From positions 11,346,001 through 11,410,000 of the forward strand of contig OZ024766.1 in assembly GCA_964016885.1 (NCBI GenBank): a DNA stretch of 64,000 bases, written 5' to 3'. This DNA is from Eledone cirrhosa. Its lineage: Eukaryota. The notes beneath the pieces were generated by a model. The model had not been told where the DNA came from, did no database searches, and saw only the letters and a list, made by a program, of their open reading frames with translations. Every line of letters begins with the position of its first letter. The stretch's first letter is position 1. This document shows, in pieces, positions 1 to 44,064 of this stretch. Made by a program: the position numbers and the translations under genes.

Positions 1-1053
1 AGCAGCAACAACAAGATCAACAACAACAACAACAGCAGCAGCAGCAACAAAACATATCCGCTCCCGTAGAAGAGGTGACGTGTGACCTTTTGAATTTGGG
101 AGATGACGCACCAATGCCCACCCCATCTTCTGGCGGTGGGGTCGCGGGTGGAGCAGGAGCGCCGTCGGATCTTTCCGGCCAGATGAACCTGTTGGATATG
201 GGAAGCGACCCAACCCCGATGCCTCCGATGAGTAACTTTGACCTGTTGAGTGGCGTAGGAGGGGTTGGCTCTGTGGGCCCTGCCTCTTCGAGGACCGACC
301 AGGGTCACTCTCATCAGCAGCCTAACCAGAATCAAACGCAGGGCCAGGGTGGTTTAGGGACTTCCGGTTCTACGGGGTCGTTAGGGGCTACAACGTCCTC
401 GTCTTCTCCCCAAAAGAAGGCCCCTGCTACCACTGCTGGTGAACCAAAGATACAGTTCGACAGCTTTGACCCCTTCCAGCTGTCATCCGGAGGGCCCTCG
501 CCCACGACAAACCCCTCTTCAGGGGGTGTAACTCCTGCGATGACGTCGAAACCAGACGACCTACTGTTCAACCTTCTGGACAGCGACCAGAAAAGCTCCG
601 GAGGTCCAAGCCCCAACCCTCAGGGATTGGGGCTGCTCGGTTCCGGTACGACCAATTCGAGGGCTTCACCGACGGTCAGTTTTGATTTGATGGGCTCCTG
701 GGAGGACGGAGGGCTGGGCTGCGGCGGGGGGAAGACGACCCCAACGCCAACGGCCAACCTCAGCGGTTCGACAAGCAACCTCTTCCCGGGCAACCTCCCA
801 AAAAAGAACCCCAGTTTCCCCTCGGGACTGCACCTCCTCAACGCCGGCAACACCACCTCGACCACCTCCTCCAACAACAACAACACCAGCGCCACCTCCA
901 ACGGGGGGCACGGCATGGCTGGAATGTCTCTCGGTGCCAACCTGTTGCGTACCTCATCTGCTGCTGCTTCTATGAACACCATGGGACAGGCACGACTCTC
1001 GCCGGCCACCAGCTTGCAGAACATTGGGTCCTCAGACCCTTTTGCTGACCTGG
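1..1053 (+). CDS. GAK: GAK/auxilin internal exon (5' end outside window): polyQ plus low-complexity clathrin/adaptor-binding region
   Basis: Frame is open from nt 3 (QQQQDQQQ...VTCDLLNL...FDSFDPF...DDLLFNLLD...FDLMGSW...SDPFADL), with DPF and DLL motifs typical of auxilin/GAK. Donor G|GTAAGC at 1054, phase 1, matches the next exon. Confidence 0.85.
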
Positions 1054-2199: not shown

Positions 2200-2325
2200 G
2201 TAACTTAACGTCAATGAAATCACCTGGCAGTACCAGTAATTTATCAGCCACCTCCCCTGCTACAGCATCATGGCAACAAGCCAGCCCTCAACAACCCAAG
2301 ACAGCGTTTAGTGGGTTGTATTCAG
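2200..2325 (+). CDS. GAK: GAK/auxilin exon (126 nt)
   Basis: Acceptor TTCTGTTTTTCACCAG at 2198-2199, donor AG|GTAAGA at 2326; phase 1/1; encodes GNLTSMKSPGSTSNLSATSPATASWQQASPQQPKTAFSGLYS. Confidence 0.8.
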
Positions 2326-2385
2326 GTAAGAGTCAATCTCATATTTTCTCCAGCTGTTCCTAAAAACTTGGCATTTTCCAATATA

Positions 2386-5300
2386 TCATCATCATCATCG
2401 TTTAACGTCCATCTTCCACGCCAGCATGGGTTAGACGGGAATTGTCCCACTTGAGGCAAGATTGGTCGGCTGACCGTGTCTCGCTTGTATAGGACTGTCT
2501 GGCAGGTTTTTTTTACGGCTGGATGTCCTTCCTAACACCAACCACATTTACAGTGTGGACTGGGAGCCTTTTTACTGTGTCTCCTACACGACCACTTTAC
2601 AGTGTGGCCTGGGAGCCTTTTTACTGTGTCTCCTACATGACCACTTTACAGTGTGGACTGGGAGGTTTTTACCGTGTCTCCTACATGACCACTTTACAGT
2701 GTGGACTGGGAGCCTTTTTACCGTGTCTTCTACACGACCACTTTACAGTGTGGACTGGGAGCCTTTTTACTGTGTCTCCTACACGACCACTTTACAGTGT
2801 GGACTGGGAGCCTTTTTACCATGTCTCCTACATGACTACTTTACAGTGTGGACTGGGAGCCTTTTTACTGTGTCTACTACATGACCACTTTACAGTGTGG
2901 ACTGGGAGCCTTTTTACTGTGTCTCCTACACGGCCACTTTACAGTGTGGACTGGGAGCCTTTTTACTGTGTCTCCTACATGACCACTTTACAGTGTGGAC
3001 TGGGAGCCTTTTTACTGTGTCTCCTACATGACCACTTTACAGTGTGGACTGGGAGCCTTTTTACTGTGTCTCCTACATGACCACTTTACAGTGTGGACTG
3101 GGAGGTTTTTACCGTGTCTCCTACACGACCACTTTACAGTGTGGACTGGGAGTCTTTTTACTGTGTCCCCTACATGACCACTTTACAGTGTGGACTGGGA
3201 GGTTTTTACTGTGTCTCCTACGTAACTACTTTACAGTGTGGACTGGGAGGTTTTTAATGTCTCTCCTACACGACCACTTTACAGTGTGGACTGGGAGCCT
3301 TTTTACTGTGTCTCCTACATGACCACTTTACAGTGTGGACTGGGAGCCTTTTTACTGTGTCTCCTACACGACCACTTTACAGTGTGGACTGGGAGCCTTT
3401 TTACTGTGTCTCCTACACGACCACTTTACAGTGTGGACTGGGAGCCTTTTTACTGTGTCTCCTACATGACCACTTTACAGTGTGGACTGGGAGCCTTTTT
3501 ACTGTGTCTCCTACACGACCACTTTACAGTGTGGACTGGGAGCCTTTTTACTGTGTCTCCTACACTACCACTTTACAGTGTGGACTGGGAGCCTTTATAC
3601 CGTGTCTCCTACATGACCACTTTACAGTCTGGACTGGGAGCCTTTTTACTGTGTCTCCTACACTACCACTTTACAGTGTGGACTGGGAGCCTTTTTACTG
3701 TGTCTCCTACACTACCACTTTACAGTGTGGACTGGGAACTTTTTACTGTGTTACCTACATGACCACATTACAATGTGGACTGGGAGCCTTTTTACTGTGT
3801 CTCCTACATGACCACTTTACAGTGTGGACTGGGAGCCTTTTTACTGTGTCTCCTACACTACCACTTTACAGTGTGGACTGGGAACTTTTTACTGTGTTAC
3901 CTACATGACCACATTACAATGTGGACTGGGAGCCTTTTTACAGTGTCTCCTATACGACCACTTTACAGTGTGGACTGGGAGGTTTTTACTGTGTCTCCTA
4001 CACGACCACTTTACAGTGTGGACTGGGAGGTTTTTACTGTGTCTCCTACACGACCACTTTACAGTGTGGACTGGGAGGTTTTTACTGTGTCTCGTACATG
4101 ACCACTTTACAGTGTGGACTGGGAGCCTTTTTACTGTGTCTCCTACACAACCACTTTACAGTGTGGACTGGGAGGTTTTTACTGTGTCTCCTACATGACC
4201 ACATTACAGTGTGGACTGGGAGCTTTTTACTGTGTCTCCTACATGACCACATTACAGTGTGGACTGGGAGCTTTTTACTGTGTCTCCTACATAACTACTT
4301 TACAGTGTGGACTGGGAGCCTTTTTACTGTGTCTCCTACATGACCACTTTACAGTGTGGACTGGGAGCCTTTTTACTTTTTCTCCTACATGACCACCTTA
4401 CAGTGTGGACTGGGAGCCTTTTTACTGTGTCTCCTACATGACCACTTTACAGTGTGGACTGGGAGCCTTTTTACTTTTTCTCCTACACGACCACCTTACA
4501 GTGTGGACTGGGAGCCTTTTTACTTTTTCTCCTACACGACCACCTTACAGTGTGGACTGGGAGCCTTTTTACTGTGTCTCCTACATGACCACTTTACAGT
4601 GTGGACTGGGAGCCTTTTTACTGTGTCTCCTACACGACCACTTTACAGTGTGGACTGGGAGCCTTTTTACTGTGTCTCCTACATGACCACTTTACATTGT
4701 GGACTGGGAGCCTTTTTACCGTGTCTCCTACACAACCACTTTACAGTGTGAACTGGGAGCCTTTTTACTGTGTCTCCTACATGACCACTTTACAGTGTGG
4801 ACTGGGAGGTTTTTACTGTGTCTCCTACATGACCACTTTACAGTGTGGACTGGGAGCCTTTTTACTGTGTCTCCTACATGACCACTTTACAGTGTGGACT
4901 GGGAGCCTTTTTACCATGTCTCCTACACAACCACTTTACAGTGTGAACTGGGAGCCTTTTTACTGTGTCTCCTACACTACCACTTTACAGTGTGGACTGG
5001 GAGGTTTTTACTGTGTCTCCTACAGGACCACTTTACAGTGTGGACTGGGAGGTTTTTACCGTGTCTCCTAGATGACCACTTTACAGTGTGGACTGGGAGT
5101 CTTTTTACTGTGTCCCCTACATGACCACTTTACAGTGTGGACTGGGAGGTTTTTACTGTGTCTCCTACACTACCACTTTACAGTGTGGACTGGGAGGTTT
5201 TTACTGTGTCTCCTACCCGGCCACTTTACAGTGTGGACTGGGAGCCTTTTTACTGTGTCTCCTACCCGGCCACTTTACAGTGTGGACTGGGAGCCTTTTT

Positions 5301-5731
5301 ACTGTGTCTCCTACACTACCACTTTACAGTGTGGCCTGGGAGCCTTTTTACCATGTCTCCTACATGACCACTTTACAGTGTGAACTGGGAGCCTTTTTAC
5401 TGTGTCTCCTACATGACCACTTTACAGTGTGGACTGGGAACTTTTTACTGTGTTACCTACATGACCACATTACAATGTGGACTGGGAGCCTTTTTACCAT
5501 GTCTCCTACATGACCACTTTACAGTGTGAACTGTGTGTTTTTTTTTTGTTGTGACTCCTACACAACCTCATTAGTTTAGACTGGATGTTATGGTACCAAC
5601 ATAGCTTTATAGAGAAAGGGGTGCTGTTGGTGGGAGTAGGGTAGTAGGTTGGGGTGTGTTTGGTATGGAGGGGCCTACTGACTGTAGGTTAACTTTGCAT
5701 GTAGGGAAGGCGGGACTTCTGTAATACTGCA
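2386..5731 (-). mobile_element. Non-autonomous RTE-derived element with a (GAT)n tail and an internally expanded minisatellite
   Basis: (CAT)n-CGTTTAACGTCC tail at 2386, GGATGTCCTTCCTAACACCAACC motif, and 5530-5731 is the reverse complement of the linker seen at 6130-6340 and 8398-8595. Confidence 0.8.
2549..5532. repeat. 48-49 bp minisatellite, about 60 copies
   Basis: Unit CAGTGTGGACTGGGAGCCTTTTTACTGTGTCTCCTACATGACCACTTTA. Confidence 0.97.
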
Positions 5732-5752
5732 TATTATATATATATATATATA

Positions 5753-6555
5753 CGAACAGCAATGCTGCATGGCAGTGAGACCTGGGCATTGTGTGCAGAG
5801 GATATACGCAGACTAGAGAGGAACGAAGCTTGCATGCTCCGCTGGATGTGTAACAGTAATATACGTGAACGGCAAAGCATAAACGAACTAAGGAATAAAT
5901 TAGAGATAAGAGGGATCAGATGTTGTTTACTCGAGAGAAGGCTACGTTGGTATGGACACGTGATGCGCATGAAAGTCGATAGCTGTATAACAAAGTGCAG
6001 GGCAATAAAGATAGACGGTAGTCACGGAATAGGCAGACCTAGAAAAACCTGGGACGAGCTGATAAACTCCGACATCACACACTTACACCTCTCCAAGACA
6101 ATGTCACTGGACCGAGACCTTTGGCGGTACTCAGTAACAGAGAAGACCCGCCTTACCTAAATATATAGTAAAACCTACTCCAGCCAGTAGGCATCTCTAA
6201 CAAAATACACCCCGTCCCACCACCCCCACCCCCACCCGATCCACACCACCCCGTTCTATGTAAAGTTATGTTGGTGCCGCGCCATCGAGGCCGAAACAAA
6301 TGAGATCGTGTAGGTGTCACGACAAAAAAACACACAGTCCACGCTGTAATGTGGCCGTGTAGGCAACACGGTAAAAACCTCCCAGACCCACACTGTAAAT
6401 GTGGTTGGTGTTAGGAAGGGCATCCAACTGTAGAAAACCTGCCAGACAGTCCTATGCGAGCAAGACAATCACTCTTGCCTCAAGTGGGACTACCCCCGTC
6501 CAAACCCATGCAAGCGTGGAACACGGACGTTAAACGTTGATGATGATGATGATGA
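5753..6555 (+). mobile_element. 5'-truncated RTE-clade LINE fragment fused to a SINE-like 3' module
   Basis: Encodes MLHGSETW...RRLRWYGHVMRM...GRPRKTW...DRDLWR (RTE C-terminus), followed by GGTTGGTGTTAGGAAGGGCATCCA and a GGACGTTAAACG(TGA)n tail. Confidence 0.88.
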
Positions 6556-6640
6556 TATATATATATTAACAATTTATATTAGCGAGCTTATACTATTAAG
6601 ACTATGCTAAGATATGTCAATATCTTAGCACCAAATATTA

Positions 6641-6698
6641 TATTTTATCTGATGAAAGCACACAAGATCTTTGTCCTTGAAATACGTATAATGAAATA
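6641..6698 (+). ncRNA. Type I hammerhead ribozyme motif (family B), within a PLE-like AT-rich element spanning about 6570-7186
   Basis: Helix I TATTTTAT(6641-48)/ATGAAATA(6691-98); CTGATGA at 6649-55; helix II AAG.ACA/TGT.CTT; GAAA at 6679-82; palindromic helix III ATACGTAT; predicted cleavage after AUA (6690). Confidence 0.72.
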
Positions 6699-6788
6699 AA
6701 TATGGTATTATAAATGATATTTTCCATTTATTAATATTGTTAATATTAATAATACTCCAGATAACTCTGTAGAGTGCTTCTAATCAAC

Positions 6789-7126
6789 ATTATCATCATC
6801 ATCATCATCATCATTTTACGCCTGCTTTTCCCTGCTTGCAAGGGTGGGACGGGTCTTATTCAGCACAGCATCTCTCCACTTGTCACGGTCCTTCGTCATC
6901 TCCACCGTCAGCTTCAGCTTGCCTCATTTCTCTCCAGCCGTTGCATATCCTCTGCAGTTGCTGCCCATGTCTCACTACCATGCAGCATCGCGCTCCTCAC
7001 ACTGGCATCATATAACCGGCCTTTCGTACCCAGAGAGAAACCCTTCTTCATCAGCAGAGGGAGCAGCTCCCTAAACTTCTTCCTTATTCTAGATACTATG
7101 GCCTCGGAACACCCCTTACCATGCTA
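6789..7126 (-). mobile_element. Internally deleted RTE LINE 3' fragment nested in the PLE-like element
   Basis: Minus strand reads GCSEAIVSRIRKKFRELLPLL...KGRLYDASVRSAMLHGSETW...// ...KDRDKWRDAVLNKTRPTLASREKQA*, then a (GAT)n tail. The host sequence resumes colinearly with the 15089-15290 copy. Confidence 0.85.
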
Positions 7127-7321
7127 ATCTGATCTGTTATAAAAATAACTTCGTTGAATAATCAACAATCCATATAACTCATTGTTTATATATATATATG
7201 TATATATATATATATGTATATATATATATGTCAACATGAATGGACCTATTGTTTTTATCTAAAGACATTTTTTTCCAATTCCACCCCGCCCGTCCCCTCA
7301 ATCTATTTTATTTCTCATTTT

Positions 7322-7435
7322 TTCTTCTGATAAAGGACTAGCGTCCGAAACGTTAACACCCTTTTCCTGCTATATCAAGCGTTAACCTAATATATTCCTT
7401 CCATATACTGTACCGATTGTGTTGTTATTTTTATA
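7322..7435 (+). mobile_element. PLE-like fragment with a hammerhead motif (family A, G8>A)
   Basis: CTGATAA-A-GGAC-TAGC-GTCC-GAAACGTT-AAC. The downstream CTAATATATTCCTTCCATATACTGTACCGATTGTGTTGTTATTT recurs at 10654-10697. Confidence 0.6.
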
Positions 7436-7599
7436 ACCCGTCTAACCCATGCTAGCGTGGAAGAACGGACGTAAAACGGTGATGATGATGATGAATATCT
7501 AATATATATATATAAATATATAATATAATATCTAATATATATATATAAATATATAATATAATATCTAATATATATATATATATATATATATTAAAAAAA

Positions 7600-7825
7600 A
7601 AAACTCACAGTCCACGCTGTAATGTGGTCGTGTAGGTAACATGGTAAAAAGTTCCCAGTCCACACTGTAATGTGGTTTATGTTAGGAAGGGCGTCCAGCC
7701 GTAGAAAGCCTGCCAGACAGTCCTATATGAGCGAGACACGGTCACCCAACCAACCTTGCTTCAAGTGGCACAACTCCAGTCTAACCCATGCTAGCATGGA
7801 AGATGGACGTTAAACAATGATGATA
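7600..7825 (+). mobile_element. 3' module of the RTE-derived SINE-like element
   Basis: CCCAGTCCACACTGTAA...GTTAGGAAGGGCGTCCAGCCGTAGAAA...CTAACCCATGCTAGCATGGAAGATGGACGTTAAAC(AAT)GATGAT. Confidence 0.8.
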
Positions 7826-7837
7826 TATATATTATAT

Positions 7838-8803
7838 GTGGCCGGTGCTCTGGTGCAATAAGTAGCAGCAAGTACCCACAGAACACTAGCTCATTCCATT
7901 GCACAGATGGTTCTATAGAAATAGTGGACAGCTTCTGTTACCTGGGTGACAAAATCAGCAGTGGGGGAGGGTGCTCTGAAAGTACAGTAGTTGAAAGTAC
8001 AGTGTATGATGCCTGCATACGAACAGCAATGTTGCATGGCAGTGAGACCTGGGCATTGTGTGTAGAGGATATACGCAGACTGGAGAGGAACGAAGCTTGC
8101 ATGCTCCGTTGGATGTGTAATAGTAATATACGTGAACGGCAAAGCATAAACGAACTAAGGGAGAAATTAGGAATAAGGGGGTCAGATGTTGTTTACTCGA
8201 GAAAAGACTACGTTGGTATGGTCACGTGATGCGCATGAAAGACGACAGCTGTATAACAAAGTGCAGGGCGATAAAAATAGACGGTAGCCACGGAGTAGGC
8301 AGACCCAGAAAAACATGGGACGACTTGATAAATTCCGACCTCACACACTTACACCTCTCCAAGACAATGTCACTGGACCGAGACCTTTGGCGCTACACAG
8401 TAATACAGAAGACCCGCCTTGCCTAAGTACAAAGCGAAACCTACAGTCGGTAGGCACCTCTAACAAAATACACCCCGTCCCACTACCCCCACCCTATCCA
8501 CACCACCCCTTAAATGTGAAGTTATGTTGGTACCACAACATCCAGTCCGAAACAAATGAGGTCGTGTAGGTGTCACGACAAAAAAACACACAGTCCACGC
8601 TGTAATGTGGCCGTGTAGATAACACGGTAAAAACCTCCCAGCCCCACACTGTAAACGTGGTTGGTGTTAGGGAGGGCATCCAGCCGTAGAAAACCCGCCA
8701 GACAGTCCTGAGCAAGACAACCACTCTTGCCTCAAGTAGGACAATTCCCATCTAGACCCATGCTAGCGTGGAAAATGGACGTTAAACAATGATGATGAAG
8801 ATG
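7838..8803 (+). mobile_element. Second copy of the RTE fragment plus SINE-like 3' module (internal deletion and frameshift)
   Basis: EIVDSFCYLGDKISSGGGCSES//VYDACIRTAMLHGSETW...GRPRKTW; clearly similar to 5753-6555 along its length. Confidence 0.88.
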
Positions 8804-8820
8804 ATATATATATATATATA

Positions 8821-8949
8821 TCACTGAAGCTCACGGAGGAGATGATGAAGGACAGTGACAAGTGGAGAGATGCTGAGCTGAATAGGACCCGTCCCACCCT
8901 TGCAAGCAGGGAAAAGTGGACATAAAATGATAATGATGATGATGATGAT
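8821..8949 (+). mobile_element. Short RTE LINE 3' end (same family as 6789-7126)
   Basis: GACAAGTGGAGAGATGCTG...GACCCGTCCCACCCTTGCAAGCAGGGAAAAG followed by (GAT)n. Confidence 0.8.
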
Positions 8950-8974
8950 ATGAGATATATGTTTGTATTTTCAG

Positions 8975-9175
8975 GTGGTGCTACAACAGGTGGGGCTCCT
9001 GGCTGGCAACAAACACCAAATAGCCAGGTGCCTTCGTCACCCAAGAAACAACAACAACAACAACCCCAGTCAGGTGCCACACAGACGACACATAAAGCAG
9101 CTTTTGGCCCCGGTTCTGGGCCTGGCCCGAGTGTTATTGGGAGCAGAGATGATAGAGGGACTCGTAAGCCTTTTG
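8975..9175 (+). CDS. GAK: GAK/auxilin exon (201 nt)
   Basis: Acceptor TTTGTATTTTCAG, donor G|GTAAGG at 9176; phase 1/1; ends SVIGSRDDRGTRKPF, resembling the vertebrate GAK/auxilin SVIG.REERG...P.F segment. Confidence 0.88.
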
Positions 9176-9277
9176 GTAAGGGTTGTTTCTTTTTTTTTGG
9201 GGGGGGGGGGGGGTATTTTGTTTTTTTTTATTTTGCAGGGGTTGGGTTTTGACGGAAAAATTTTGTATCTGTGACTC

Positions 9278-9990
9278 CTCTCTCTCTCTGTCTCTCTCAC
9301 CCTCTCTCTCTCTCTTGCTTTCTCTCTCTCTCTCTTTCTCTCTTGCTTTCTCTCTCTCTCTCTCTCTTTCTCTGTCTGTCTCACTCTCTCTCTCTCTCTG
9401 TCTCTCTGACCCCCTCTCTCTCTGTCTCTCTCACTCTCTCACCCTCTCTCTCACTCTTTCTCTCTTGCTTTCTCTCTCTCTCTCTCTCTCTTGCTTTCTC
9501 TCTCTCTCTCTCTCTCCTTTCTCTGTCTGTCTCACTCCCTCTCTTTTTCTCTCACACTCTCTCTCTCTTTTTCTGTCTCATTTTCTTTCATCCACCCCCT
9601 CTTTCTCTCACCCTCCCTCTCTCTCTTTCTCCCTCTCTCTCCCTCTAGCTTTCCTCTCTCTCCCTCTCTTTCTCTGTCTGTCTCACCCCCCACTCTTTCT
9701 CTCTGTCCTATCTTTTTCACTTTCTCTCTCGCTCCCTCCCCCCTTCTCTTTATCTGACGTTGGTGGTGGTGATGATGATGTTAGTGATGGTGAATGTGAC
9801 GACCATGATGTTGGTGTTGGCGGTGATGGCGAAAGATGTGGTGTTGATGAGGATGATGATGATGATCATCATCATCACCATCATCACCATCACCATCACC
9901 ACCATCACCATCACCATCATCACCATCATCATCACCATCATCATCATCACCATCATCACCATCATCATCATCATCATGGTGGTGGTAATG
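9278..9990. repeat. (CT)n-rich tract followed by (GAT/GGT)n and (CAT/CAC)n microsatellites
   Basis: Direct inspection of the sequence. Confidence 0.95.
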
Positions 9991-10116
9991 GCGATATGAC
10001 TGACAATCAAATGTTGAATGCCCCCCACTCCCCCCGTCCGTCCCGTCCCTTTCTCGAGCTAAACTAACAAAGGAACAACCTCTCATCTTCTCCCTCGGAA
10101 CTTCCATTCATTCCAG

Positions 10117-10256
10117 GTCCCAAACCTAAAGTCGGTACAGACACATTTGGAGATCTCCTCGGAGGGTTCACTTCCAGGAAGCCCAATGAACCGCGCACAA
10201 TTGGAGAGATGAGGAAGGACGTGCTAGCCAAAGAGATGGACCCGGACAAACTAAAG
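10117..10256 (+). CDS. GAK: GAK/auxilin exon (140 nt) preceding the J domain
   Basis: Acceptor TTCATTCCAG, donor AAG|GTAACC; phase 1/0; encodes GPKPKVGTDTFGDLLGGFTSRKPNEPRTIGEMRKDVLAKEMDPDKLK, matching the GAK pattern KPKV...F.DLL..GF....P.TI.EMRK..LAK..DP.KLK. Confidence 0.93.
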
Positions 10257-10276
10257 GTAACCATAGATGACCCCTT

Positions 10277-10653
10277 TGTTGTTGGTGTTGGTGGTGGTGT
10301 TGTTACTGTTGTTACTGTTGTTGTTGGTGGTGGTGGTGGTGGTGGTGGTGTTAGTGTTGGTGGTGGTGGTGTTGTTGTTACTGTTGTTGTTGGTGGTGGT
10401 GTTACTGTTGTTACTGTTGTTACTGTTGTTGTTGCTGTTGTTGGTGGTGGTGTTGTTACTGTTGTTGTTGCTGTTGTTGGTGGTGGTGGTGTAACTGTTG
10501 TTGTTACTGTTGTTACTGTTGTTGGTGGTGTTGTTGTTGTTGGTGGTGTTGTTACTGTTGTTGGTGGTGGTGGTGTTGTTGTTACTGTTGTTGTTGCTGT
10601 TGTTGTTGTTGTTGTTGTTACTGTTGTTGTTACTGTTGGTGGTGTTGTTGTTA
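10277..10653. repeat. (GTT/GGT/ACT)n trinucleotide tract
   Basis: Direct inspection; begins about 20 nt after the exon donor. Confidence 0.95.
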
Positions 10654-10732
10654 CTAATATATCCCTTCCATATACTGTACTGATTGTGTTGTTATTTCTA
10701 TTTACCTTTTACATATATATATATATATATAT

Positions 10733-10896
10733 ATAGCAGAGTATAACAGTTTTAATATAGATGAGATTCTACAGGACTAGAACTGTTTCATTCATTAGAA
10801 ATCATCAGGAATATGGATTCCTGATGATTTCTAATGAATGAAACAGTTCTAGTCCTGTAGAATCTCATCTATATTAAAACTGTTATACTCTGCTAT
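10733..10896. repeat. Perfect inverted repeat: 80-bp arms with a 4-nt loop
   Basis: 10733-10812 is the exact reverse complement of 10817-10896; loop ATGG. Confidence 0.97.
10816..10864 (+). ncRNA. Type I hammerhead ribozyme motif (family C)
   Basis: Helix I GATTC(10816-20)/GAATC(10860-64); CTGATGA at 10821-27; helix II TTC/GAA with a U-U base; GAAA at 10840-43; helix III ACAG/CTGT around loop TTCTAGTC; predicted cleavage after GUA (10859). Confidence 0.72.
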
Positions 10897-10947
10897 GTAT
10901 TGAGTACCTTACTTACTGTGGTTACCGCCGATTCAACCCGGAATAAC

Positions 10948-11036
<89 letters not shown>

Positions 11037-11038
<2 letters not shown>

Positions 11039-11913
11039 GGGTGTGGACGACATCTGTTTGCAATTTTCAACTGCTAATTTTATGCAAATTGTTTTTACTT
11101 CCGTTGTCACTCTTGTCTTCATAAAAACAGTGACTATATTTCCATTATTTATTTTCAGAATAATTGATTATGAATAATTTTGAACCTCCAAATTTGTGGA
11201 AGAGACACGGAGTTCTTCTTGGAATCCGTGCCGGGAGGACAAATAAGACCAGAAGATCAACTCCCAGAACAACAGGTGGCTCGCTGTCTCATCCAAAGAC
11301 GTGCCCAGAGTCATGCAAACAAAGTTTCCAGTGACAACATTGGTCTTAGGTGTCGTCAGCAGTCAAGGTGACGTCATGCCATCTCACTTCTTCCCTGAGA
11401 GCCTCAAGCTGAACACCGATGGCTACATCCGCGTTCTGAGCGAGGTAGTAAAGCCCTGGATCGACCAGGTAGCTGCAGGTAGGCCGTACGTGTGGCAGCA
11501 AGACTCAGCGCTCTGCCATACCAGCCGAAAGACCCAAGCCTGGCTGTCAGCCACACTTCATCTGACATCTGGCCTCCCAGCTCGCCTGATTACAACCCCC
11601 TCGACTTCTTTGTGTGGGGCGCAGTGGAACGAGACACCAACAGATCTAGCTGCAATACGAAAGATGATCTGAAGGTCAGGATCACAAGTGCCTTTAGGGG
11701 CCTAAGTCGGGGGGACAGTGACGAAGGCCTGTAGCTGGTTCCGAGGCCGCCTTGATGCCCTCATCAAAGCCAATGGCGGGTTTATCGAGTGAGATCGAAA
11801 GAACAAGTCATGAAGACAAACTGACCCAAGTTTGATAAATATATCTTAAAAAATAAAACTACTGTGTTACTTTTTCCTAGACAGTAATATTGCGAACAGA
11901 TATCGTCCGCACC

Positions 11914-11916
<3 letters not shown>
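11037..11916 (+). mobile_element. Internally deleted Tc1/mariner-superfamily transposon, maT/DD37D-like
   Basis: 28-bp TIRs (T)AGGGTGTGGACGACATCTGTTTGCAAT / ATTGCGAACAGATATCGTCCGCACCCTG (24/28 match), inserted in (TA)n. Frameshifted transposase with VWQQDSA.CH and WPPSSPDYNPLDFFVW motifs. Confidence 0.9.
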
Positions 11917-11960
<44 letters not shown>

Positions 11961-12097
11961 AGAAAGGGACACAGCAGTCAACTTGTTGTTGCTACCTAGA
12001 TGAAACCTACTATGAAATCCCACAATTAATTTTATACTTGAATTTTCAAATCTCAAATTTTAACTCTTCGTATTATTAATTTTTCTTAATATTAATC

Positions 12098-12145
12098 AAC
12101 ATTTGAAAAGATGGCTTTTGCAGACCCATCGAAACCGGTCATTTT
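12098..12145 (+). ncRNA. Hammerhead-like motif (family D; U3-A8 variant, weak helix I)
   Basis: TTGAAAA(12103-09)-GATGG...CCATC-GAA-ACCGGT-C; perfect 5-bp helix II, palindromic helix III and a GUC site at 12140. Confidence 0.45.
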
Positions 12146-12359
12146 TTATACCCTTTATTATTTCCTTACCTTATAAAATTATATGTTTTTTCACAAAAAA
12201 GTATTCTGTCTCTTATATATTCCATGTGCCATTACCAACCTCAATTTTCTCTATAACCTTCGTTTTGTGTAAAAAATTACACTTTTCATATATACATATA
12301 TATACATATATGTATATATACATATATACATATATACATATATATATATACAAACAAAA

Positions 12360-12607
12360 AAAAAAAAAAAGCACCCAGCCCACACTGTAAAGTGGACATG
12401 TAGGCGCCACGAAAAAGCACCCAGCACTCACTGTAAATGAGGTTGGTGTTAGGAAGGGCATCCAGCTGTAGAAATCAAGCCAGAATCAGTTCCTGTATGA
12501 GCAAGGCATGGTCAGCCGACCAGACACTGCCCACAACAGGACAACCCGTCTAACCCATGCTAGCGTGGAAGAACGGACGTAAAACGGTGGTGATGATGAT
12601 GATGATG
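12360..12607 (+). mobile_element. RTE-tailed SINE 3' portion
   Basis: GCACCCAGCACTCACTGTAAATGAGGTTGGTGTTAGGAAGGGCATCCAGCTGTAGAAA...CTAACCCATGCTAGCGTGGAAGAACGGACGTAAAACG followed by (GAT)n. Confidence 0.82.
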
Positions 12608-12643
12608 GTATATATAATGAGTGTATATTTGTTTGTGTTGCAG

Positions 12644-12820
12644 ATCATGGAGTGGATAAAGGGTAAAGAACGCAACATCCGTGCACTTCTGTGTTCGCTG
12701 CACACCGTATTGTGGGAGGAAGAAACCCGCTGGAGGGAATGTGGAATGCATGAACTCGTTACACCTGACCAGGTGAAAAAGGTATACAGGAAAGCTGTCC
12801 TATCCGTGCATCCAGACAAG
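12644..12820 (+). CDS. GAK: GAK/auxilin J-domain exon (177 nt)
   Basis: Acceptor TTTGTGTTGCAG, donor AAG|GTGAGA; phase 0/0; encodes [59 protein letters not shown], the auxilin-type J domain with its HPD motif. Confidence 0.97.
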
Positions 12821-12877
12821 GTGAGAGCAGTTTTTAAAGTGTTTATATTTCTCTAAAGACCTTCCATCATAGTTTTA

Positions 12878-15019
12878 TGTGGTCATGCAGGTGTCCCAAC
12901 AAAAGGCTCCCAGTCCACACTGTAAAGTGTTTGTGTAGATGTCATGACAAAAAGCACCCAGTCCACACTGTAAAGTGGTCATGTAGGTGTCGCGACAAAA
13001 AGCACCCAGTCCACACTGTAAAGTGGTCATGTAGGAGACATGACAAAAAGACACCCAGTCCACACTGTAAAGTGGTCATGTAGGTGTCACAGCAAAAAAC
13101 ACCCAGTCCACACTGTAAAGTGGTCATGTAGGTGTCACAGCAAAAAGCACCCAGTCCACACTGTAAAGTGGTCATTTAGATGTCATGACAAAAAGCACCC
13201 AGTCCACACTGTAAAGTGGTCATGTAGGTGTCACGACAAAAACCACCCAGTCCACACTGTAAAGTGGTCATGTAGGTGTCACAACAAAAAGCACCCAGTC
13301 GACACTGTAAAGTGGTCATGTAGGTGTCGCAACAAAAAGTACCCAGTCCACACTGTAAAGTGGTCATGTAGGTGTCAACAAAAAGACACCCAGTCCACAC
13401 TGTAAAGAGGTCATGTAGGTGTCATAACAAAAAGCACCCAGTCCACACTGTAAAGAGGTCATGTAGGTGTCATAACAAAAAGCACCCAGTCCACACTGTA
13501 AAGTGGTCATGTAGGTGTCACGACAAAAAGCACCCAGTCCACACTGTAAAGTGGTCATGTAGGTGTCACAACAAAAAGCACCCAGTCGACACTGTAAAGT
13601 GGTCATGTAGGTGTCACGACAAAAAGCACCCAGTCCACACTGTAAAGTGGTCATGTAGGTGTCACAACAAAAAGCACCCAGTCGACACTGTAAAGTGGTC
13701 ATGTAGGTGTCGCAACAAAAAGCACCCAGTCCACACTGTAAAGTGGTCATGTAGGTGTCGCAACAAAAAGCACCCAGTCCACACTGTAAAGTGGTCATGT
13801 AGGTGTCACAACAAAAAGACACCAAGTTCACACTGTAAAGTGGTCATGTAGGTGTCACAACAAAAAGACACCCAGTCCACACTGTAAAGTGGTCATGTAG
13901 GTGTCACAGCAAAAAGCACCCAGTCCACACTGTAAAGTGGTCATGTAGGTGTCACAACAAAAGACACCCAGTCCACACTGTAAAGTGGTCATGTAGGTGT
14001 CACAGTAAAAAGCACCCTGTCCACACTGTAAAGTGGTCATGTAGGTGTCACAGCAAAAAGCACCCTGTCCACGCTGTAAAGTGGTCATGTAGGTGTCACA
14101 GCAAAAAGCACCCAGTTGATACTGTAAAGTGGTCATGTAGGTGTCACAGCAAAAAGCACCCTGTCCACACTGTAAAGTGGTCATGTAGGTGTCACAGCAA
14201 AAAGCACCCTGTCCACACTGTAAAGTGGTCATGTAGGTGTCACAGCAAAAAGCACCCAGTCGATACTGTAAAGTGGTCATGTAGGTGTCACAGCAAAAAG
14301 CACCCAGTCGATACTGTAAAGTGGTCATGTAGGTGTCACAACAAAAGACACCCAGTCCACACTGTAAAGTGGTCATGTAGGTGTCACAGCAAAAAGCACC
14401 CTGTCCACACTGTAAAGAGGTCATGTAGGTGTCACAACAAAAGACACCCAGTCCACACTGTAAAGTGGTCATGTAGGTGTCACAGTAAAAAGCACCCTGT
14501 CCACACTGTAAAGTGGTCATGTAGGTGTCACAGCAAAAAGCACCCTGTCCACACTGTAAAGTGGTCATGTAGGTGTCACAGCAAAAAGCACCCAGTCGAT
14601 ACTGTAAAGTGGTCATGTAGGTGTCACAACAAAAGACACCCAGTCCACACTGTAAAGTGGTCATGTAGGTGTCACAGCAAAAAGCACCCTGTCCACACTG
14701 TAAAGTGGTCATGTAGGTGTCACAGCAAAAAGCACCCAGTCCACACTGTAAAGTGGTCATGTAGGTGTCACAGCAAAAAGCACCCAGTCCACACTGTAAA
14801 GTGGTCATGTAGGTGTCACAACAAAAAGCACCCAGTCCACACTGTAAAGTGGTCATGTAGGTGTCACAGCAAAAAGCACCCAGTCTACACTGTAAAGTGG
14901 TCATGTAGGTGTCACAGCAAAAAGTACCCAGTCCACACTGTAAAGTGGTCATGTAGGTGTCACAGCAAAAAGCACCCAGTCCACACTGTAAAGTGGTCAT
15001 GTAGGTGTCTTGACAAAAA
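12878..15019. repeat. 48-bp minisatellite, about 44 copies, inverted relative to 2549-5532
   Basis: Unit CCCAGTCCACACTGTAAAGTGGTCATGTAGGTGTCACAGCAAAAAGCA. Confidence 0.97.
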
Positions 15020-15088
15020 GTATGAATTTCAACCGGCGAGGTTGTCTTTTTTCTGTGTATGTCAATATTTATTTATAAAACAAATCTG

Positions 15089-15154
15089 TATTTTATCTGA
15101 TGAAAGCGCACCATAATTTACCTTGGTCGCCCTTGAAATATATATAATAAAATA
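15089..15154 (+). ncRNA. Type I hammerhead ribozyme motif (family B, second copy; element extends to about 15290)
   Basis: Helix I TATTTTAT/ATAAAATA (8 Watson-Crick pairs); CTGATGA at 15097-103; helix II AAG.GC.ACCA/TGGT.GC.CTT; GAAA at 15135-38; palindrome ATATATAT; predicted cleavage after 15146. Confidence 0.72.
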
Positions 15155-15442
15155 ATTATGGTTTTATAAATATAGTTTCCATTTATTAATATATTGTATA
15201 TTTACTCCACTAATCTGTTGAGTGCTTTATATCAGTTATAAAAAATGTTAAGCTTGTTGAATCCCAACAAATTAAATATAACCTCTGCATATATATATAT
15301 ATATATATATCCATATCCAAAATTAAGATAAATTAAATGAATTTAATCTAAATCAAAATTATGGGTGTCATGCCAGAAAGACATGTGCCATATCACCCGG
15401 AAAATAAGCTCCAAGATTCTAACGAGTAGGTCCGAGTATTTT

Positions 15443-15729
15443 ATAATAACTAGAAATTGATTAACATATATATAAACATGAATAATCACAGGAGATAATT
15501 TATACAAGTGTGTAACCACACATAGCTAGGTAGGTAACTAAATAAAGTTGACCAGAACTTCAAAAATAGATACCTTATAATATGATTAATCATATAAGGT
15601 ATCTATTTTTGAAGTTCTGGTCAACTTTATTTAGTTACCTACCTAGCTATGTGTAGTTACACACCTGTATAAATTATCTCCTGTGATTATTCATGTTTAT
15701 ATATATGTTAATCAATTTCTAGTTATTAT
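15443..15729. repeat. Near-perfect 287-bp palindrome
   Basis: Arms of about 142 bp centred on TATGATT|AATCATA, with two mismatches and a 3-nt bulge. Confidence 0.95.
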
Positions 15730-15893
15730 CGGCTGACCATGCCTTGCTCATACAGGAACTGATCTGTAGAAATCAAGCCAGATCAGTTCCTGTATGAGCA
15801 AGGCATGGTCAGCCGACCAGACACTGCACACAACCCGTCTAACCCATGCTAGCGTGGAAGAACGGACGTAAAACGGTGGTGATGATGATGATG
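15729..15893 (+). mobile_element. Truncated RTE-tailed SINE with a 38-bp fold-back inversion at its 5' end
   Basis: 15729-15766 is the reverse complement of 15779-15816; the remainder matches 12467-12607. Confidence 0.85.
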
Positions 15894-15903
15894 ATATATA
15901 TAT

Positions 15904-16242
15904 GGAGGCACATGGCTTAGTGGTTAGAGCATTGGCCTTGCAATCGAAAGGTTGTGAGTTCAATTGTCAGACGGGGTGATGTGTTGTTTCCTTGAGCAAG
16001 ACACTTTATTTCACATTGCTCCAGTTTACTCAGCTGTAGAAATGAGATGATAGGGACTGGGGTCCCTATCATTCCACTGCAACGTGGACGTGGAGGTGCC
16101 ACGGCAAAAAAGCACCCAGCACTCGCTGTAAATGAGGTTGGTGTTAGGAAGGGCATCCAGCTGTAGAAATCAAGCCAGAATCAATTCCCGTCCCACCCTT
16201 GCAAGCAGGGAAAAGCGGACGTAAAATGATGATGATGATGAT
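15904..16242 (+). mobile_element. Full-length tRNA-derived SINE (CORE-like body, bipartite RTE 3' part)
   Basis: A box TGGCTTAGTGG, B box GAGTTCAATT, CCTTGAGCAAGACACTT, RTE-like GGTTGGTGTTAGGAAGGGCATCCAG, and tail GTCCCACCCTTGCAAGCAGGGAAAAGCGGACGTAAAA(TGA)n. Confidence 0.88.
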
Positions 16243-16304
16243 ATATATATGTGTCTGTGTGGTGTTATCTAAATGTTATATTCGGTCTTCTTTTGTATTT
16301 GCAG

Positions 16305-16406
16305 CTGACAGGGACCCCACATGAAGCTTTAGCGAAGTTAATATTTATGGAACTAAATGATGCTTGGGCAGAGTTTGAAGAGAAAGGGATGCAATCGTTG
16401 TACTAG
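16305..16406 (+). CDS. GAK: GAK/auxilin terminal coding exon
   Basis: Acceptor TTTTGTATTTGCAG; encodes [33 protein letters not shown], with TAG at 16404-16406. This is the conserved auxilin C-terminus ([12 protein letters not shown]) and is absent from the ORF track. Confidence 0.96.
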
Positions 16407-19935: not shown

Positions 19936-20086
19936 TTTGGTGGGTGGCTGGGGTTGTTGAAAACACCCTGATTCAATATCTCAAATCAGAAGAGGAGTGT
20001 TTGATGACTGCAGTGATGGACAGGAGGGCCCGGTGAATGGAACGCAATAAATCCAACAGACCAGAGACCATATACAGGTGTGTATT

Positions 20087-23000
20087 TGAGGGATCACAAC
20101 TCTGATACTATGGACATGTGGTTAGAATGTCTGAGGAAAGAATCTCTGAATTGAGAGATCACAGCTCTGATACTATGGACATGTAGTTAGAATGTCTGAG
20201 GAAAGAATATCTGAATTGAGAGATCACAGCTCTGAAACTATGGACATGTGGTTAGAATGTCTCAGGAAAGAATCACTGAATTGAGAGATCACAGCTCTGA
20301 TACTATGGACATGTGGTTAGAATGTCTCAGGAAAGAATCACTGAATTGAGAGATCACAGCTCTGATACTATGGACATGTGGTTAGAATGTCTCAGGAAAG
20401 AATCACTGAATTGAGAGATCACAGCTCTGATACTATGGACATGTGGTTAGAATGTCTCAGGAAAGAATCTCTGAATTGAGAGATCACAGCTCTGAAACTA
20501 TGGACATGTGGTTAGAATGTCTCAGGAAAGAATCTCTGAATTGAGAGACCACAGCTCTGATACTACAGACATGTGGTTAGAATGTCTCAGGAAAGAATCT
20601 CTGGATTGAGAGATCACAGCTCCGATACTATGGACATGTGGTTAGAATGTCTCAGGAAAGAATCTCTGAATTGAGAGATCACAGCTCTGATACTATGGAC
20701 ATGTGGTTAGAATGTCTCAGGAAAGAATCTCTGAATTGAGAGATCACAGCTCTGATACTATGGACATGTGGTTAGAATGTCTCAGGAAAGAATCTCTGAA
20801 TTGAGAGATCACAGCTCTGATACTATGGACATGTGGTTAGAATGTCTCAGGAAAGAATCTCTGAATTGAGAGATCACAGCTCTGATACTATGGACATGTG
20901 GTTAGAATGTCTCAGGAAAGAATCTCTGAATTGAGAGATCACAGCTCTGATACTATGGACATGTGGTTAGAATGTCTCAGGAAAGAATCTCTGAATTGAG
21001 AGATCACAGCTGTGATACTATGGACATGTGGTTAGAATGTCTCAGGAAAGAATCTCTGAATTGAGAGATCACAGCTCTGATACTGTGGACATGTGGTTAG
21101 AATGTCTCAGGAAAGAGTCTCTGAATTGAGAGATCACAGCTCTGATACTATGGACATGTGGTTAGAATGTCTCAGGAAAGAATCTCTGAATTGAGAGATC
21201 ACAGCTGTGATACTATGGACATGTGGTTAGAATGTCTCAGGAAAGATCACTGAATTGAGAGATCACAGCTCTGATACTATGGACATGTGGTTAGAATGTC
21301 TCAGGAAAGAATCTCTGATTTGAGAGATCACAGCTCTGATACTATGGACATGTGGTTAGAATGTCTCAGGAAAGAGTCTCTGAATTGAGAGATCACAGCT
21401 CTGATACTATGGACATGTGGTTAGAATGTCTCAGGAAAGAGTCTCTGAATTGAGAGATCACAGCTCTGATACTATGGACATGTGGTTAGAATGTCTCAGG
21501 AAAGAATCTCTGATTTGAGAGATCACAGCTCTGATACTATGGACATGTGGTTAGAATGTCTCAGGAAAGAGTCTCTGAATTGAGAGATCACAGCTCTGAT
21601 ACTATGGACATGTGGTTAGAATGTCTCAGGAAAGAGTCTCTGAATTGAGAGATCACAGCTCTGATACTATGGACATGTGGTTAGAATGTCTCAGGAAAGA
21701 ATCTCTGATTTGAGAGATCACAGCTCTGATACTATGGACATGTGGTTAGAATGTCTCAGGAAAGAATCTCTGATTTGAGAGATCACAGCTCTGATACTAT
21801 GGACATGTGGTTAGAATGTCTCAGGAAAGAATCTCTGATTTGAGAGATCACAGCTCTGATACTATGGACATGTGGTTAGAATGTCTCAGGAAAGATCACT
21901 GAATTGAGAGATCACAGCTCTGATACTATGGACATGTGGTTAGAATGTCTCAGGAAAGAGTCTCTGAATTGAGAGATCACAGCTCTGATACTACAGACAT
22001 GTGGGTAGAATGTCTCAGGAAAGAGTCTCTGAATTGAGAGATCACAGCTCTGATACTACAGACATGTGGTTAGAATGTCTGAGGAAAGAATCTCTGAGTT
22101 GAGAGATCACAGCTCTGATACTACAGACATGTGGGTAGAATGTCTCAGGAAAGAGTCTCTGAATTGAGAGATCACAGCTCTGATACTATGGACATGTGGT
22201 TAGAATGTCTCAGGAAAGAATCTCTGAATTGAGAGATCACAGCTCTGATACTATGGACATGTGGCTAGAATGTCTCAGGAAAGAATCTCTGAATTGAGAG
22301 ATCACAGCTCTGATACTATGGGCATGTGGTTAGAATGTCTCAGGAAAGAATCTCTGAATTGAGAGATCACAGCTCTGATACTATGGACATGTGGTTAGAA
22401 TGTCTGAGGAAAGAATCTCTGAATTGAGAGATCACAGCTCTGATACTATGGACATGTGGCTAGAATGTCTCAGGAAAGAATCTCTGAATTGAGAGATCAC
22501 AGCTCTGATACTATGGACATGTGGTTAGAATGTCTCAGGAAAGATCACTGAATTGAGAGATCACAGCTCTGATACTATGGACATGTGGTTAGAATGTCTC
22601 AGGAAAGAGTCTCTGAATTGAGAGATCACAGCTCTGATACTATGGACATGTGGTTAGAATGTCTCAGGAAAGAATCTCTGAATTGAGAGATCACAGCTGT
22701 GATACTATGGACATGTGGTTAGAATGTCTCAGGAAAGAGTCTCTGAATTGAGAGATCACAGCTCTGATACTATGGACATGTGGTTAGAATGTCTCAGGAA
22801 AGAATCTCCTAATTGAGAGATCACAGCTCTGATACTATGGACATGTGGTTAGAATGTCTCAGGAAAGATCACTGAATTGAGAGATCACAGCTGTGATACT
22901 ATGGACATGTGGTTAGAATGTCTCAGGAAAGAGTCTCTGAATTGAGAGATCACAGCTCTGATACTATGGACATGTGGTTAGAATGTCTCAGGAAAGAATC

Positions 23001-26530: not shown

Positions 26531-26637
26531 GGGGATGATTTTCCTCGGATTCAATGGGGGGGGGGGGGGGGGGGGTAACCACAGTAAGTAAGGCACTCAA
26601 TATATTAGAGTGTAAAGAGCAAAATTGCTATATATAT

Positions 26638-26984: not shown

Positions 26985-27295
26985 ATTTATATATATATTT
27001 ACACCCTCCAGTATTCCAATGATTTGATCAGAGGTAAACACTGTATTTAAGGTCGAGTGATGCAACTTTGAGTAATTAGCGGCCTTTAGACTCACCTGAT
27101 CAACGAAACAATTGTTACTACTGTAAATGAAACCCCTTTTGTACAGCCGACCATGTTATTCTTCACTCTTTCACTATATATATACTATTTTCCTGACATT
27201 TGTACATTATTCTATGTACTATACATGCACCTTTGATGAGTTGTAGTGCACCTGAGCACTGTACACAATAATTTCATTATTATTATATATGTGTA

Positions 27296-43273: not shown

Positions 43274-44064
43274 TCATCATCATCATCGTTTAACGTCCAC
43301 TTTCCACGCTAGCATGGGTTTAGACGGGAGTTGTCCCACGGGAAGCAAGGTTGGTCGGGTGACCGTGTCTCGCTTGTATAGGACTATCTGGCGGGTTTTC
43401 TACGGCTGGATGCCCTTCCTAACACCAACCACATTTACAGTGTGGACTGGGAGGTTTTTACCGTGTTACCTATACGGCCACATTACAGCGTGGACTGGGA
43501 GGTTTTTACCGTGTCACCTACACGGCCACATTACAGCGTGGACTGGGAGGTTTTTACCATGTTACCTACACGGCCACATTACAGCGTGGACTGGGAGGTT
43601 TTTACCGTGTCACCTACATGGCCGCATTACAGCGTGGACTGGGAGGTTTTTACCATGTCACCTACACGGCCACATTACAGCGTGGACTGGGAGGTTTTTA
43701 CCATGTCACCTACACGGCCACATTACAGCGTGGACTGGGAGGTTTTTACCATGTTACCTACACGGCCACATTTACAGTGTGGACTGGGAGGTTTTTACCA
43801 TGTTACCTATACGGCCACATTACAGCGTGGACTGGGAGGTTTTTAGCGTGTCACCTACACGGCCACATTACAGCGTGGATTGGGAGGTTTTTACCATGTT
43901 ACCTATACGGCCACATTACAGCGTGGACTGGGAGGTTTTTACCGTGTCACCTACACGGCCACATTACAGCGTGGACTGGGAGGTTTTTACCGTGTCTCCT
44001 ACACGGCCACATTACAGCGTGGACTGGGAGCTTTTTACCGTGTCTCCTACACGGCCACATTACA
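43274..44064 (-). mobile_element. RTE-derived SINE module with about 13 tandem 48-bp units (43438-44064)
   Basis: Same architecture as 2386-5532; unit variant CAGCGTGGACTGGGAGGTTTTTACCGTGTCACCTACACGGCCACATTA. Confidence 0.9.

Follow-up and report, generated by a model that had tools for sequence, protein, structure and literature searches.

Two minisatellite arrays lie in opposite orientation in the introns around three exons of GAK, a clathrin-uncoating gene, in the 64-kb stretch of octopod DNA analysed here (the window). We consider it very probable that they are retroposon-tail minisatellites that were placed around these exons by accident. A two-unit repeat in the tail of the retroposon would have been the seed of both arrays, which likely grew separately, presumably through local tandem duplication. 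In the unspliced RNA, the arrays are predicted to pair into at most a transient intronic duplex that would likely be edited by ADAR. The gene itself likely makes mainly linear, full-length mRNA.

The GAK exons and their predicted products

The window begins inside the gene, and all of the GAK exons are on the plus strand. A GAK/auxilin exon with a low-complexity region (1..1053) runs off the window start. It has an open frame and a GT donor, and is 49% identical to the Octopus sinensis cyclin-G-associated kinase (P0002). The next exon, 2200..2325, is in frame, with AG/GT ends and a phase-1 donor. Three exons follow between the arrays: 8975..9175, the proposed back-splice acceptor, with AG/GT ends and equivalent residues in all five homologues; 10117..10256, also with AG/GT ends and kept in the homologues; and 12644..12820, which encodes the N-terminal 59 residues of an auxilin-type J module, HPD included. 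The last coding exon (16305..16406) holds the C-terminal part of the J domain and the stop. Using phmmer, exon 12644..12820 matched residues 10-68 of 1NZ6 (E 3e-26) and exon 16305..16406 matched residues 70-101 (E 5.4e-10); the former was 90% identical to O. sinensis GAK over 59 residues. A sequence-only reading of this DNA had placed most of the J domain between the arrays. This is true of the extended auxilin J module, but not of the Pfam DnaJ profile, of which exon 12644..12820 covers only positions 9-32 of 63.

The three exons and the HPD motif were kept in all of the homologues found (5/5) in a search that scored 8,000 candidates, where a rare isoform could be missed. The kinase and PTEN/C2 domains, which lie outside the window here, are among the Pfam domains listed for the closest homologues. 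The J module with its HPD and the order of the C-terminal segments are the same as in known GAK/auxilin (1NZ6, P0002), and no protein difference was found within the window, which holds the C-terminal part.

Together, the three bracketed exons comprise 518 nt. They share one open frame with the exon ending at 1053 and with exons 2200..2325 and 16305..16406, and the phase changes from 1 at 2325 to 0 at 12820. The three exons, their total length and the change of phase were thus as the sequence-only reading had given them, and the same is true of the products that it predicted. A circle would be 518 nt long and would carry a 173-codon frame, opened by an ATG and containing the HPD; a 2325-to-16305 skip would break the frame and meet a stop at 16322-16324.

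The arrays and their parent element

TRF placed array 1 at 2541..5533 on the minus strand (period 49, 61.4 copies of a 49/48-bp unit, 92% matches) and array 2 at 12879..15020 on the plus strand (period 48, 44.6 copies, 93% matches). Aligned as an inverted pair, they were 83.5% identical over 2,156 nt, which bears out the earlier description of opposite-orientation versions of one unit. Array 2 had been said to begin 57 nt past the donor, and we measured 57-58 nt. A third array of the same family (43429-44064, minus strand, 13 x 48 bp) lies outside the GAK coding span; within 43277..44064 it is joined to the minus-strand 3′ tail of a dispersed element. The sequence match of arrays 1 and 2 is far beyond chance, but their inverted placement is not, because with random orientation two arrays in different introns would be inverted half the time.

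The commonest units of arrays 1 and 2 are 5 positions apart, so the earlier figure of about 5 in 49 holds for this best case. It does not hold across all 2,580 unit pairs, among which the mean difference was 8.2 (range 5-14). Within these two arrays, units differed on average by 3.5-3.7 positions, compared with the 8.2 between them; in the comparison of all three arrays, the values were 2.8-3.7 within and 8.2-11.5 between. An origin of array 2 by inverted duplication of array 1 was rejected, because the two have no identical unit in common. All of the 115 units had their nearest neighbours in their own array, which argues that the arrays grew separately. An array 1/array 2 unit pair had 6.7 non-pairing mismatches against 0.8 G.U, and 2.5 A.C plus C.A against 0.8 G.U plus U.G, the pairs not being independent. 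As most of the mismatches are unable to pair, there is no sign of selection on the duplex. An exact 31-nt unit pattern had no match in metagenome contigs.

A high-copy dispersed element carries two internal repeats in its 3′ tail, and the array unit is one of them. In the window, the family has 23 merged loci (10 plus, 13 minus), three of which are arrays. Tandem repeat makes up 65% of the 64 kb, and at periods of 40 or more we counted 11 distinct minisatellite arrays (the filter gave 12 rows, with one array listed twice). Array 1 expanded within one of the minus-strand copies of the element. This copy of the ~360-nt repeat tail (2389..5729) has its head at 5470-5729 and its 3′ end, with a GAT-type microsatellite, at 2389-2550. 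By BLAST, both flanks of the array matched the copy at 8440-8800 at 78-81%. The commonest unit of array 1 has 41-42 of 49 matches to the second internal repeat versus 37 to the first, that of array 2 has 41 of 48 to the first versus 39, and that of the third array has 44 of 48 to the dispersed two-unit copies. Array 1 has both the head and the tail of the element alongside, the third array has the tail only and array 2 has neither; two of the three arrays therefore lie within or next to the parent element.

Two un-expanded two-unit copies, 6178-6546 and 8440-8800, each lie directly 3′ of the same ORF end. The first belongs to a 5′-truncated LINE-like copy on the plus strand (5750..6546, ORF end 5750-6160), which is 92% identical to 8017-8430. 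The second is the full tail of another truncated LINE-like copy on the plus strand (7850..8800, ORF end to 8426), which ends 177 nt upstream of the 8975 acceptor. Smaller pieces include a short antisense tail piece (6791..6917, minus strand) with 91% complementarity to 8824-8950, a stretch that lies shortly before the same acceptor, and a partial sense tail copy (7597..7824, plus strand) with an 85.6% inverted match to 2380-2622. A sense copy of a related tail subfamily (12365..12596, plus strand) lies inside the would-be loop and had a very high contig pile-up in three of four runs. In runs X21 and X22, approximately 27,000 contigs each fell on one 577-bp stretch, and the summed depth at the first array unit was 4-5 orders above that of unique exon, which is not a copy number.

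The copies have GAT-type ends and staggered 5′ starts, with varying 5′ truncation. The element is likely an RTE-type LINE/SINE tail, the RTE clade being the label that we presume for it. Atlas neighbours of the ORF end at 0.95-0.96 had no common Pfam family; one neighbour cluster (0.95) was named as a reverse-transcriptase fragment, with weak recognition (1962, below 2300). A tail of this kind also seems to be shared with a tRNA-headed SINE-like element, whose tRNA-like head at ~15905 was read from A/B-box-like motifs only; ARAGORN detected no tRNA gene. No account of this octopod repeat turned up in the open-access literature searched.

Origins of this kind are known. In the available parts of the two papers, 23% of human minisatellites/satellites are TE-derived (PMC3389668) and squamates have SINE-derived satellites (PMC10702118). 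The GAK arrays are similar in that a fragment of a dispersed retroposon serves as their unit, with repeated separate origin, and in that array 1 still lies within its parent copy. They differ in that a LINE-like 3′ tail supplied the seed, as a two-unit duplication that was already present, and in that they are intronic and 2-3 kb long.

Predicted pairing and RNA-like contigs

A pre-mRNA duplex of about 2 kb had been proposed, and it is possible on paper: the predicted cross-intron duplex extends over 2.1 kb, with 1,818 pairs and helices of up to 31 bp. At -2,965 kcal/mol, it is by far the largest predicted pairing in the gene, which counts against the accidental reading. A 10-unit duplex gave -640 kcal/mol, versus -241 kcal/mol for a same-orientation control. 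The reverse-complementary match starts 59 nt from the 12820 donor. Array 2, less than 60 nt past the donor and with no antisense unit within its own intron, is placed favourably for back-splicing there. At the other end, array 1 stops 3,442 nt from the 8975 acceptor, and intra-intron partners lie closer, at 18-177 nt. The predicted 6791-6917/8824-8950 duplex (-220.9 kcal/mol) has an arm that ends 18 nt from the acceptor. The sense copies within intron 2326-8974 hold only 5 unit cores, compared with 61 units in array 1, and are thus unable to tie up array 1. A reading of the arrays as a special bracket was not supported: they are separate expansions of a common repeat tail, with nearer partners inside the intron.

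Inverted Alu/B1/ID pairs (PMC8516420, PMC5731806), as described in the available text, are also complementary repeats that flank an exon block (with ~83% identity here), and competition between repeat pairs within one intron has been described for them as well (PMC5731806). The GAK arms differ from them in being 2-3 kb many-register arrays rather than single ~300-nt elements, and the circRNA here is a candidate only. We found no paper in the searched literature on a back-splicing element built of tandem arrays. In squid, according to the accessible part of PMC9068888, most of the ubiquitous edits fall on repeats in 3′ UTRs and introns, usually at low frequency. Similarly, the intronic repeat duplex predicted at GAK is probably an ADAR substrate, with a role as a switch being only a candidate. 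The sequence-only reading had combined back-splicing by inverted repeats with heavy ADAR editing. These premises pull against each other, as ADAR was expected to antagonise back-splicing in an octopus study (PMC9699675, available part). For O. vulgaris total RNA, that part gives no more than 296 high-quality circRNAs, at low levels, with a single tissue accounting for 200. It also describes no departure of octopus splicing from that of other invertebrates. Neither GAK nor auxilin had a match in the tables searched, to which the list of the 296 circRNAs did not belong.

A sequencing-run search with 8940-12870 matched 24 runs. Twenty of these (RNA or guessed-RNA) shared only 0.06-0.09 of words, which is no evidence, and X2, which was examined, had no record on the stretch. 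Four runs of one study (X21-X24) contain it, and contigs of X21, X22 and X24 were examined. X24 is an RNA-like run of unrecorded library type, represented by contigs only. Its contig 24 (2,195 nt) aligned at record positions 1499-1681 to 12642-12824, with one other letter. This mismatch fits the next linear exon, which starts CTGA, and not the 8975 exon, which starts GTGG. The 1,500 upstream letters comprise all upstream exons back to position 21 of the window, and the contig end maps to 16822; both ends are in simple repeats. The contig thus fits a linear, all-exon GAK mRNA. We rejected the 518 letters 3′ of the donor in this contig as a circle: the length is a coincidence, the alignment end and the mismatch fit the next linear exon, the contig ends in the 3′ simple repeat, and a circle would repeat contig words. 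In this weak test, no back-splice or skip junction was among the matches listed, which come from contigs of one RNA-like run with the 8975 exon outside the examined stretch. The listings comprised 24 contig pieces, with another 56,975 pieces, 69 joints and 457 loose ends beyond them.

Two contigs, X21:8 and X22:16, join the exon to the start of array 2, reaching 32 and 48 letters into it without a mismatch. One A>G site was listed, at 12398; it falls outside the arrays and is present in X21, X22 and X24 alike (50 nt of array 2 were covered). As it occurs in DNA-like runs too, it reflects variation among repeat copies and not editing.

Alternative readings and their meaning

An accidental pair might nevertheless be strong enough to give a readily detectable 518-nt circRNA and some skipping, as a functionless by-product. 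The arrays are the largest reverse-complementary match of the gene and are very close to the donor, and in mammals the loci that yield circRNAs are associated with young, species-specific repeats and taken as sources of splicing by-products (PMC8516420, available text). However, the depth in X24 was flat at 34.6 over 12652-12811 and no second contig added to it, although short junction pieces could be missed. The distance of array 1 from the acceptor, the nearer competing pairs (PMC5731806) and the scarcity of circRNAs in O. vulgaris (PMC9699675) also make this outcome unlikely. It is decidedly unlikely that the pair is a regulatory switch, in which ADAR editing would tune the duplex and hence the share of circRNA or of a J-less GAK that keeps its N-terminal domains and loses Hsc70 stimulation. 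The skip stop lies in the apparent last exon, where exon-junction-dependent decay would likely miss it, and the circle would have its HPD-containing frame. Moreover, A.C or C.A mismatches, about 2.5 in each unit pair, lie next to the 31-bp helices, which is a favoured context for ADAR. Yet neither array is a copy of the other, most of the differences between them disrupt pairing, and the five homologues retrieved are all exon-included, within the limits of that search. The linear fit of the X24 contig and the ordinary octopus splicing in the available part of PMC9699675 point the same way.

That one array was assembled in the wrong orientation or at the wrong size is very improbable. Kilobase near-identical arrays are hard to assemble, and no contig among those listed spans either of them, but matching halves of one minus-strand element flank array 1 and the coding exons on both sides stay in frame. 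The two contigs that enter array 2 do so cleanly, although they come from one sample, possibly the assembly's own source, and are not independent.

We regard as quite improbable the wider claim that retroposon-tail minisatellites act as kilobase many-register arms in octopod pre-mRNAs and, at GAK, drive ADAR-tuned circRNA or a J-less kinase. Under that claim, the arms would be a kind of back-splicing element made of tandem arrays. The discovery of a regulated circle, or of a J-less GAK, would tie tandem-repeat length variation to a clathrin-uncoating gene and would allow the suppression of circRNA by ADAR to be tested directly in cephalopods. Read as separately grown minisatellites in accidental inversion, the pair is presumably neutral and of little importance: pairs like it will be frequent in octopod introns, which are rich in repeats, and the GAK product looks normal. 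It is a clear example of a two-unit retroposon-tail repeat that repeatedly seeds kilobase minisatellites, and such seeding should give rise to long stretches of double-stranded RNA within introns, in an animal whose ADARs are very active.

Origin of the inverted arrays in GAK introns

Six GAK exon segments with canonical ends and a single open frame, ending at 16406, were found in the window. The nearest named homologues were Octopus sinensis GAK and Argonauta hians GAK; identity to the O. sinensis protein was 90% over the J exon (12644-12820) and fell to 49% across the long low-complexity exon, so the DNA probably comes from another octopod. By sequence match, the J exon corresponds to residues 10-68 of auxilin (1NZ6), and residues 70-101 are matched by the last exon (16305-16406). 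The three exons bracketed by the arrays (8975-9175, 10117-10256 and 12644-12820), with the HPD motif, were kept in all five homologues retrieved.

Tandem Repeats Finder counted 61.4 copies of a 49-bp unit in array 1 (2541-5533, minus strand) and 44.6 copies of a 48-bp unit in array 2 (12879-15020, plus strand). Their opposite orientation, proposed in the sequence-only reading, was borne out by an inverted match of 2,156 nt at 83.5%. The difference of about 5 in 49 positions proposed with it held for the commonest units but not generally: the average for the full set of 2,580 unit pairs was 8.2 (range 5-14). All 115 units had their nearest neighbours within their own array and no identical unit was common to arrays 1 and 2; therefore, the arrays probably expanded separately. 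Differences between them mostly break pairing. Per pair of units, one from each array, there were 6.7 non-pairing mismatches versus 0.8 G.U, and A.C-type mismatches exceeded G.U about three to one, the unit pairs not being independent.

Two un-expanded copies of a ~360-nt element, both on the plus strand (6178-6546 and 8440-8800), contain two tandem 48-bp units and a GAT-type microsatellite end. The same ORF end directly precedes both (5750-6160 and up to 8426; mutual identity 92%). We read the ~360-nt element as the probable 3′ end of a LINE, which we take to be RTE-like. Support from Atlas was weak: the neighbours included an RT-fragment cluster at 0.95, but had no common Pfam family, and recognition was below threshold. 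A related tail terminates a SINE-like element at ~15900-16240, and this element recurs elsewhere in the window. This element (~350 nt, tRNA-like head and shared tail) lies at 15894-16249 (plus strand), 26629-26994 and 49691-50030, with copies at 94-98%; the plus copy stops ~60 nt before the last-exon acceptor. SINE tails common to a partner LINE have been described (PMC4758252, excerpt), and octopus repeats are predominantly SINEs (PMC9068888, excerpt).

The host of array 1 is a minus-strand copy of the ~360-nt element (head 5470-5729, 3′ end 2389-2550), in which the array stands in place of the second unit. A third array (43429-44064, minus strand) adjoins another minus-strand tail. No element flanks array 2, whose unit resembles the first of the two tandem units a little more than the second (41 vs 39 of 48 positions). 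The arrays qualify as transposon-derived minisatellites, a class of repeat common in human (PMC3389668, excerpt) and reptiles (PMC10702118, excerpt). No octopus SINE-derived minisatellite like this one was found in a literature search that had most subscription journals outside its reach.

Repeat background of the window

The tail family formed 23 merged loci (10 plus, 13 minus; 8,882 bases). Eleven distinct minisatellite arrays with a period of at least 40 passed the filter, and tandem repeats made up 65% of the window. In the DNA-like runs X21 and X22, ~27,000 contigs per run fell on the 577-bp test stretch, and summed contig depth on the first array unit exceeded that on the unique exon by four to five orders of magnitude, a figure that is not a copy number but marks a very common repeat. 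Inverted orientation within the window is a coin-toss outcome, expected half the time.

Post hoc, a strand skew was seen in the tail family: 9 of 12 loci were plus in the GAK span (2389-16238) and 10 of 11 minus downstream (26387-56446). Possible causes are local duplication and a minus-strand gene that has escaped notice. A repeat-derived minisatellite family with a 77-bp unit had expanded twice in opposite orientations (1855-2160 and 50492-51065), each array lying beside a longer copy of the dispersed repeat (1554-2166 and 50342-51256, 79% to each other). The arrays at 44416-47422 (58-bp, 51 copies) and 48856-49630 (97-bp, 8 copies) resemble each other and, weakly, the tail family on the minus strand. 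A 3.9-kb array at 20086-24017 (65-bp unit, 96% matches) was not matched in the tail-family searches. The 47 nt directly before array 2, downstream of the 12820 donor (12832-12878), resemble a piece of a 105-bp minisatellite unit (24952-25580) at 87-90%; the sequencing runs hold this piece in high copy as well. Part of the 12365-12596 element (12466-12606) is repeated almost identically in the next intron at 15729-15885. Ahead of this second copy stands a 35-nt stretch of its own sequence in exact inversion, so that duplication and inversion have occurred together here on a small, local scale. The intron 10257-12643 holds at 11200-11800 what we take, by eye, to be a degenerate Tc1/mariner-like transposase fragment.

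Predicted pairing and splicing of GAK pre-mRNA

The long pre-mRNA duplex that had been proposed is possible on paper, with 1,818 predicted pairs in 261 helices, 28 of them at least 20 bp and none above 31 bp. Ten units paired with ten had a predicted energy of -640 kcal/mol, whereas a control in the same orientation reached -241. Two near-perfect intronic palindromes, at 10729-10900 (84-bp arms, 99%, TA-rich runs at both ends) and 15443-15729 (~290 nt, 96.6%), each give a local hairpin stronger than any helix of the arrays.

The arrays would work like an inverted-Alu pair and are candidate circRNA-driving elements. The bracketed exons sum to 518 nt, as had been stated, and the exon model agrees with a skip from phase 1 (donor 2325) to phase 0 (donor 12820); joining 2325 to 16305 gives a stop at 16322-16324, inside the last exon. 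Two features of array 2 would favour back-splicing from 12820 to 8975: its start lies ~59 nt from the donor, and its own intron contains no antisense unit. However, 3,442 nt separate the end of array 1 from the 8975 acceptor, and the array 1 host can pair with sense copies in its own intron (-327 to -361 kcal/mol each). With no more than five unit cores in these copies and 61 units in array 1, most of the array would stay free, a point in favour of back-splicing. Pairing of the host tail with 8540-8805 leaves the 2325 donor 64 nt and the 8975 acceptor 177 nt away; it brings them side by side and would favour the normal splice. A separate 127-nt pair stops 18 nt from this acceptor. The intra-intron partners would also be transcribed before array 2. 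Competition between pairs inside and across introns is described in a review (PMC5731806, excerpt).

Circles are low overall in O. vulgaris, with 296 high-quality ones kept, 200 in one tissue, and the authors of that study expected ADAR to antagonise back-splicing (PMC9699675, excerpt). In mammals, circRNAs are associated with young repeats and have mostly been interpreted as by-products (PMC8516420, excerpt). Most ubiquitous edits in squid are located in repeats within 3′ UTRs and introns, and most are of low frequency (PMC9068888, excerpt). Minisatellites and back-splicing were not found together in our search, which left most subscription journals outside its reach.

Sequencing runs and alternative explanations

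Only four of 24 runs found, from one study, contained the region; X24, X21 and X22 from among these, and X2 from the remaining runs, were aligned to 12352-12928, and X2 gave no records. X21 and X22 behaved as DNA: single contigs ran without a differing letter from intron through exon into array 2, reaching 32 and 48 letters into it. This confirms the local orientation of array 2 in one sample, possibly the assembly's own. We consider a mis-assembly very improbable. X24 behaved as RNA. Its 2,195-nt contig matched only 12642-12824 (record positions 1499-1681, one other letter). Judged by coordinates, this fits a linear junction to 16305: the 1,500 letters upstream add up to all upstream exons back to window position 21, and the contig ends at 16822, each of these two points lying within a simple repeat. 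Depth over the J exon was flat at 34.6, with no second contig and no back-splice or skip junction among the matches listed. The comparison is weak for minor RNA forms: contigs drop rare variants, the library type is unrecorded and the aligned stretch leaves out the 8975 exon. The sole A>G among the rows listed (12398) occurred in DNA-like and RNA-like runs alike. X24 also showed extra contig depth of ~30 at 12612-12651, over the end of the intron that precedes the J exon and no further than 12651; this is possibly a repeat-tail piece from another locus.

We consider a detectable circle without function unlikely, and a regulated circle or J-less isoform somewhat less likely still. Most probably, these are retroposon-tail arrays inverted by chance in GAK introns. 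Retrotransposition would have dispersed a tail that already contained a two-unit repeat, and single copies would have grown into arrays by unequal exchange or slippage, two of them coming to lie in GAK introns in opposite orientation. In GAK pre-mRNA the arrays may pair, as predicted, and be edited, while the transcript would be spliced linearly, consistent with one run.
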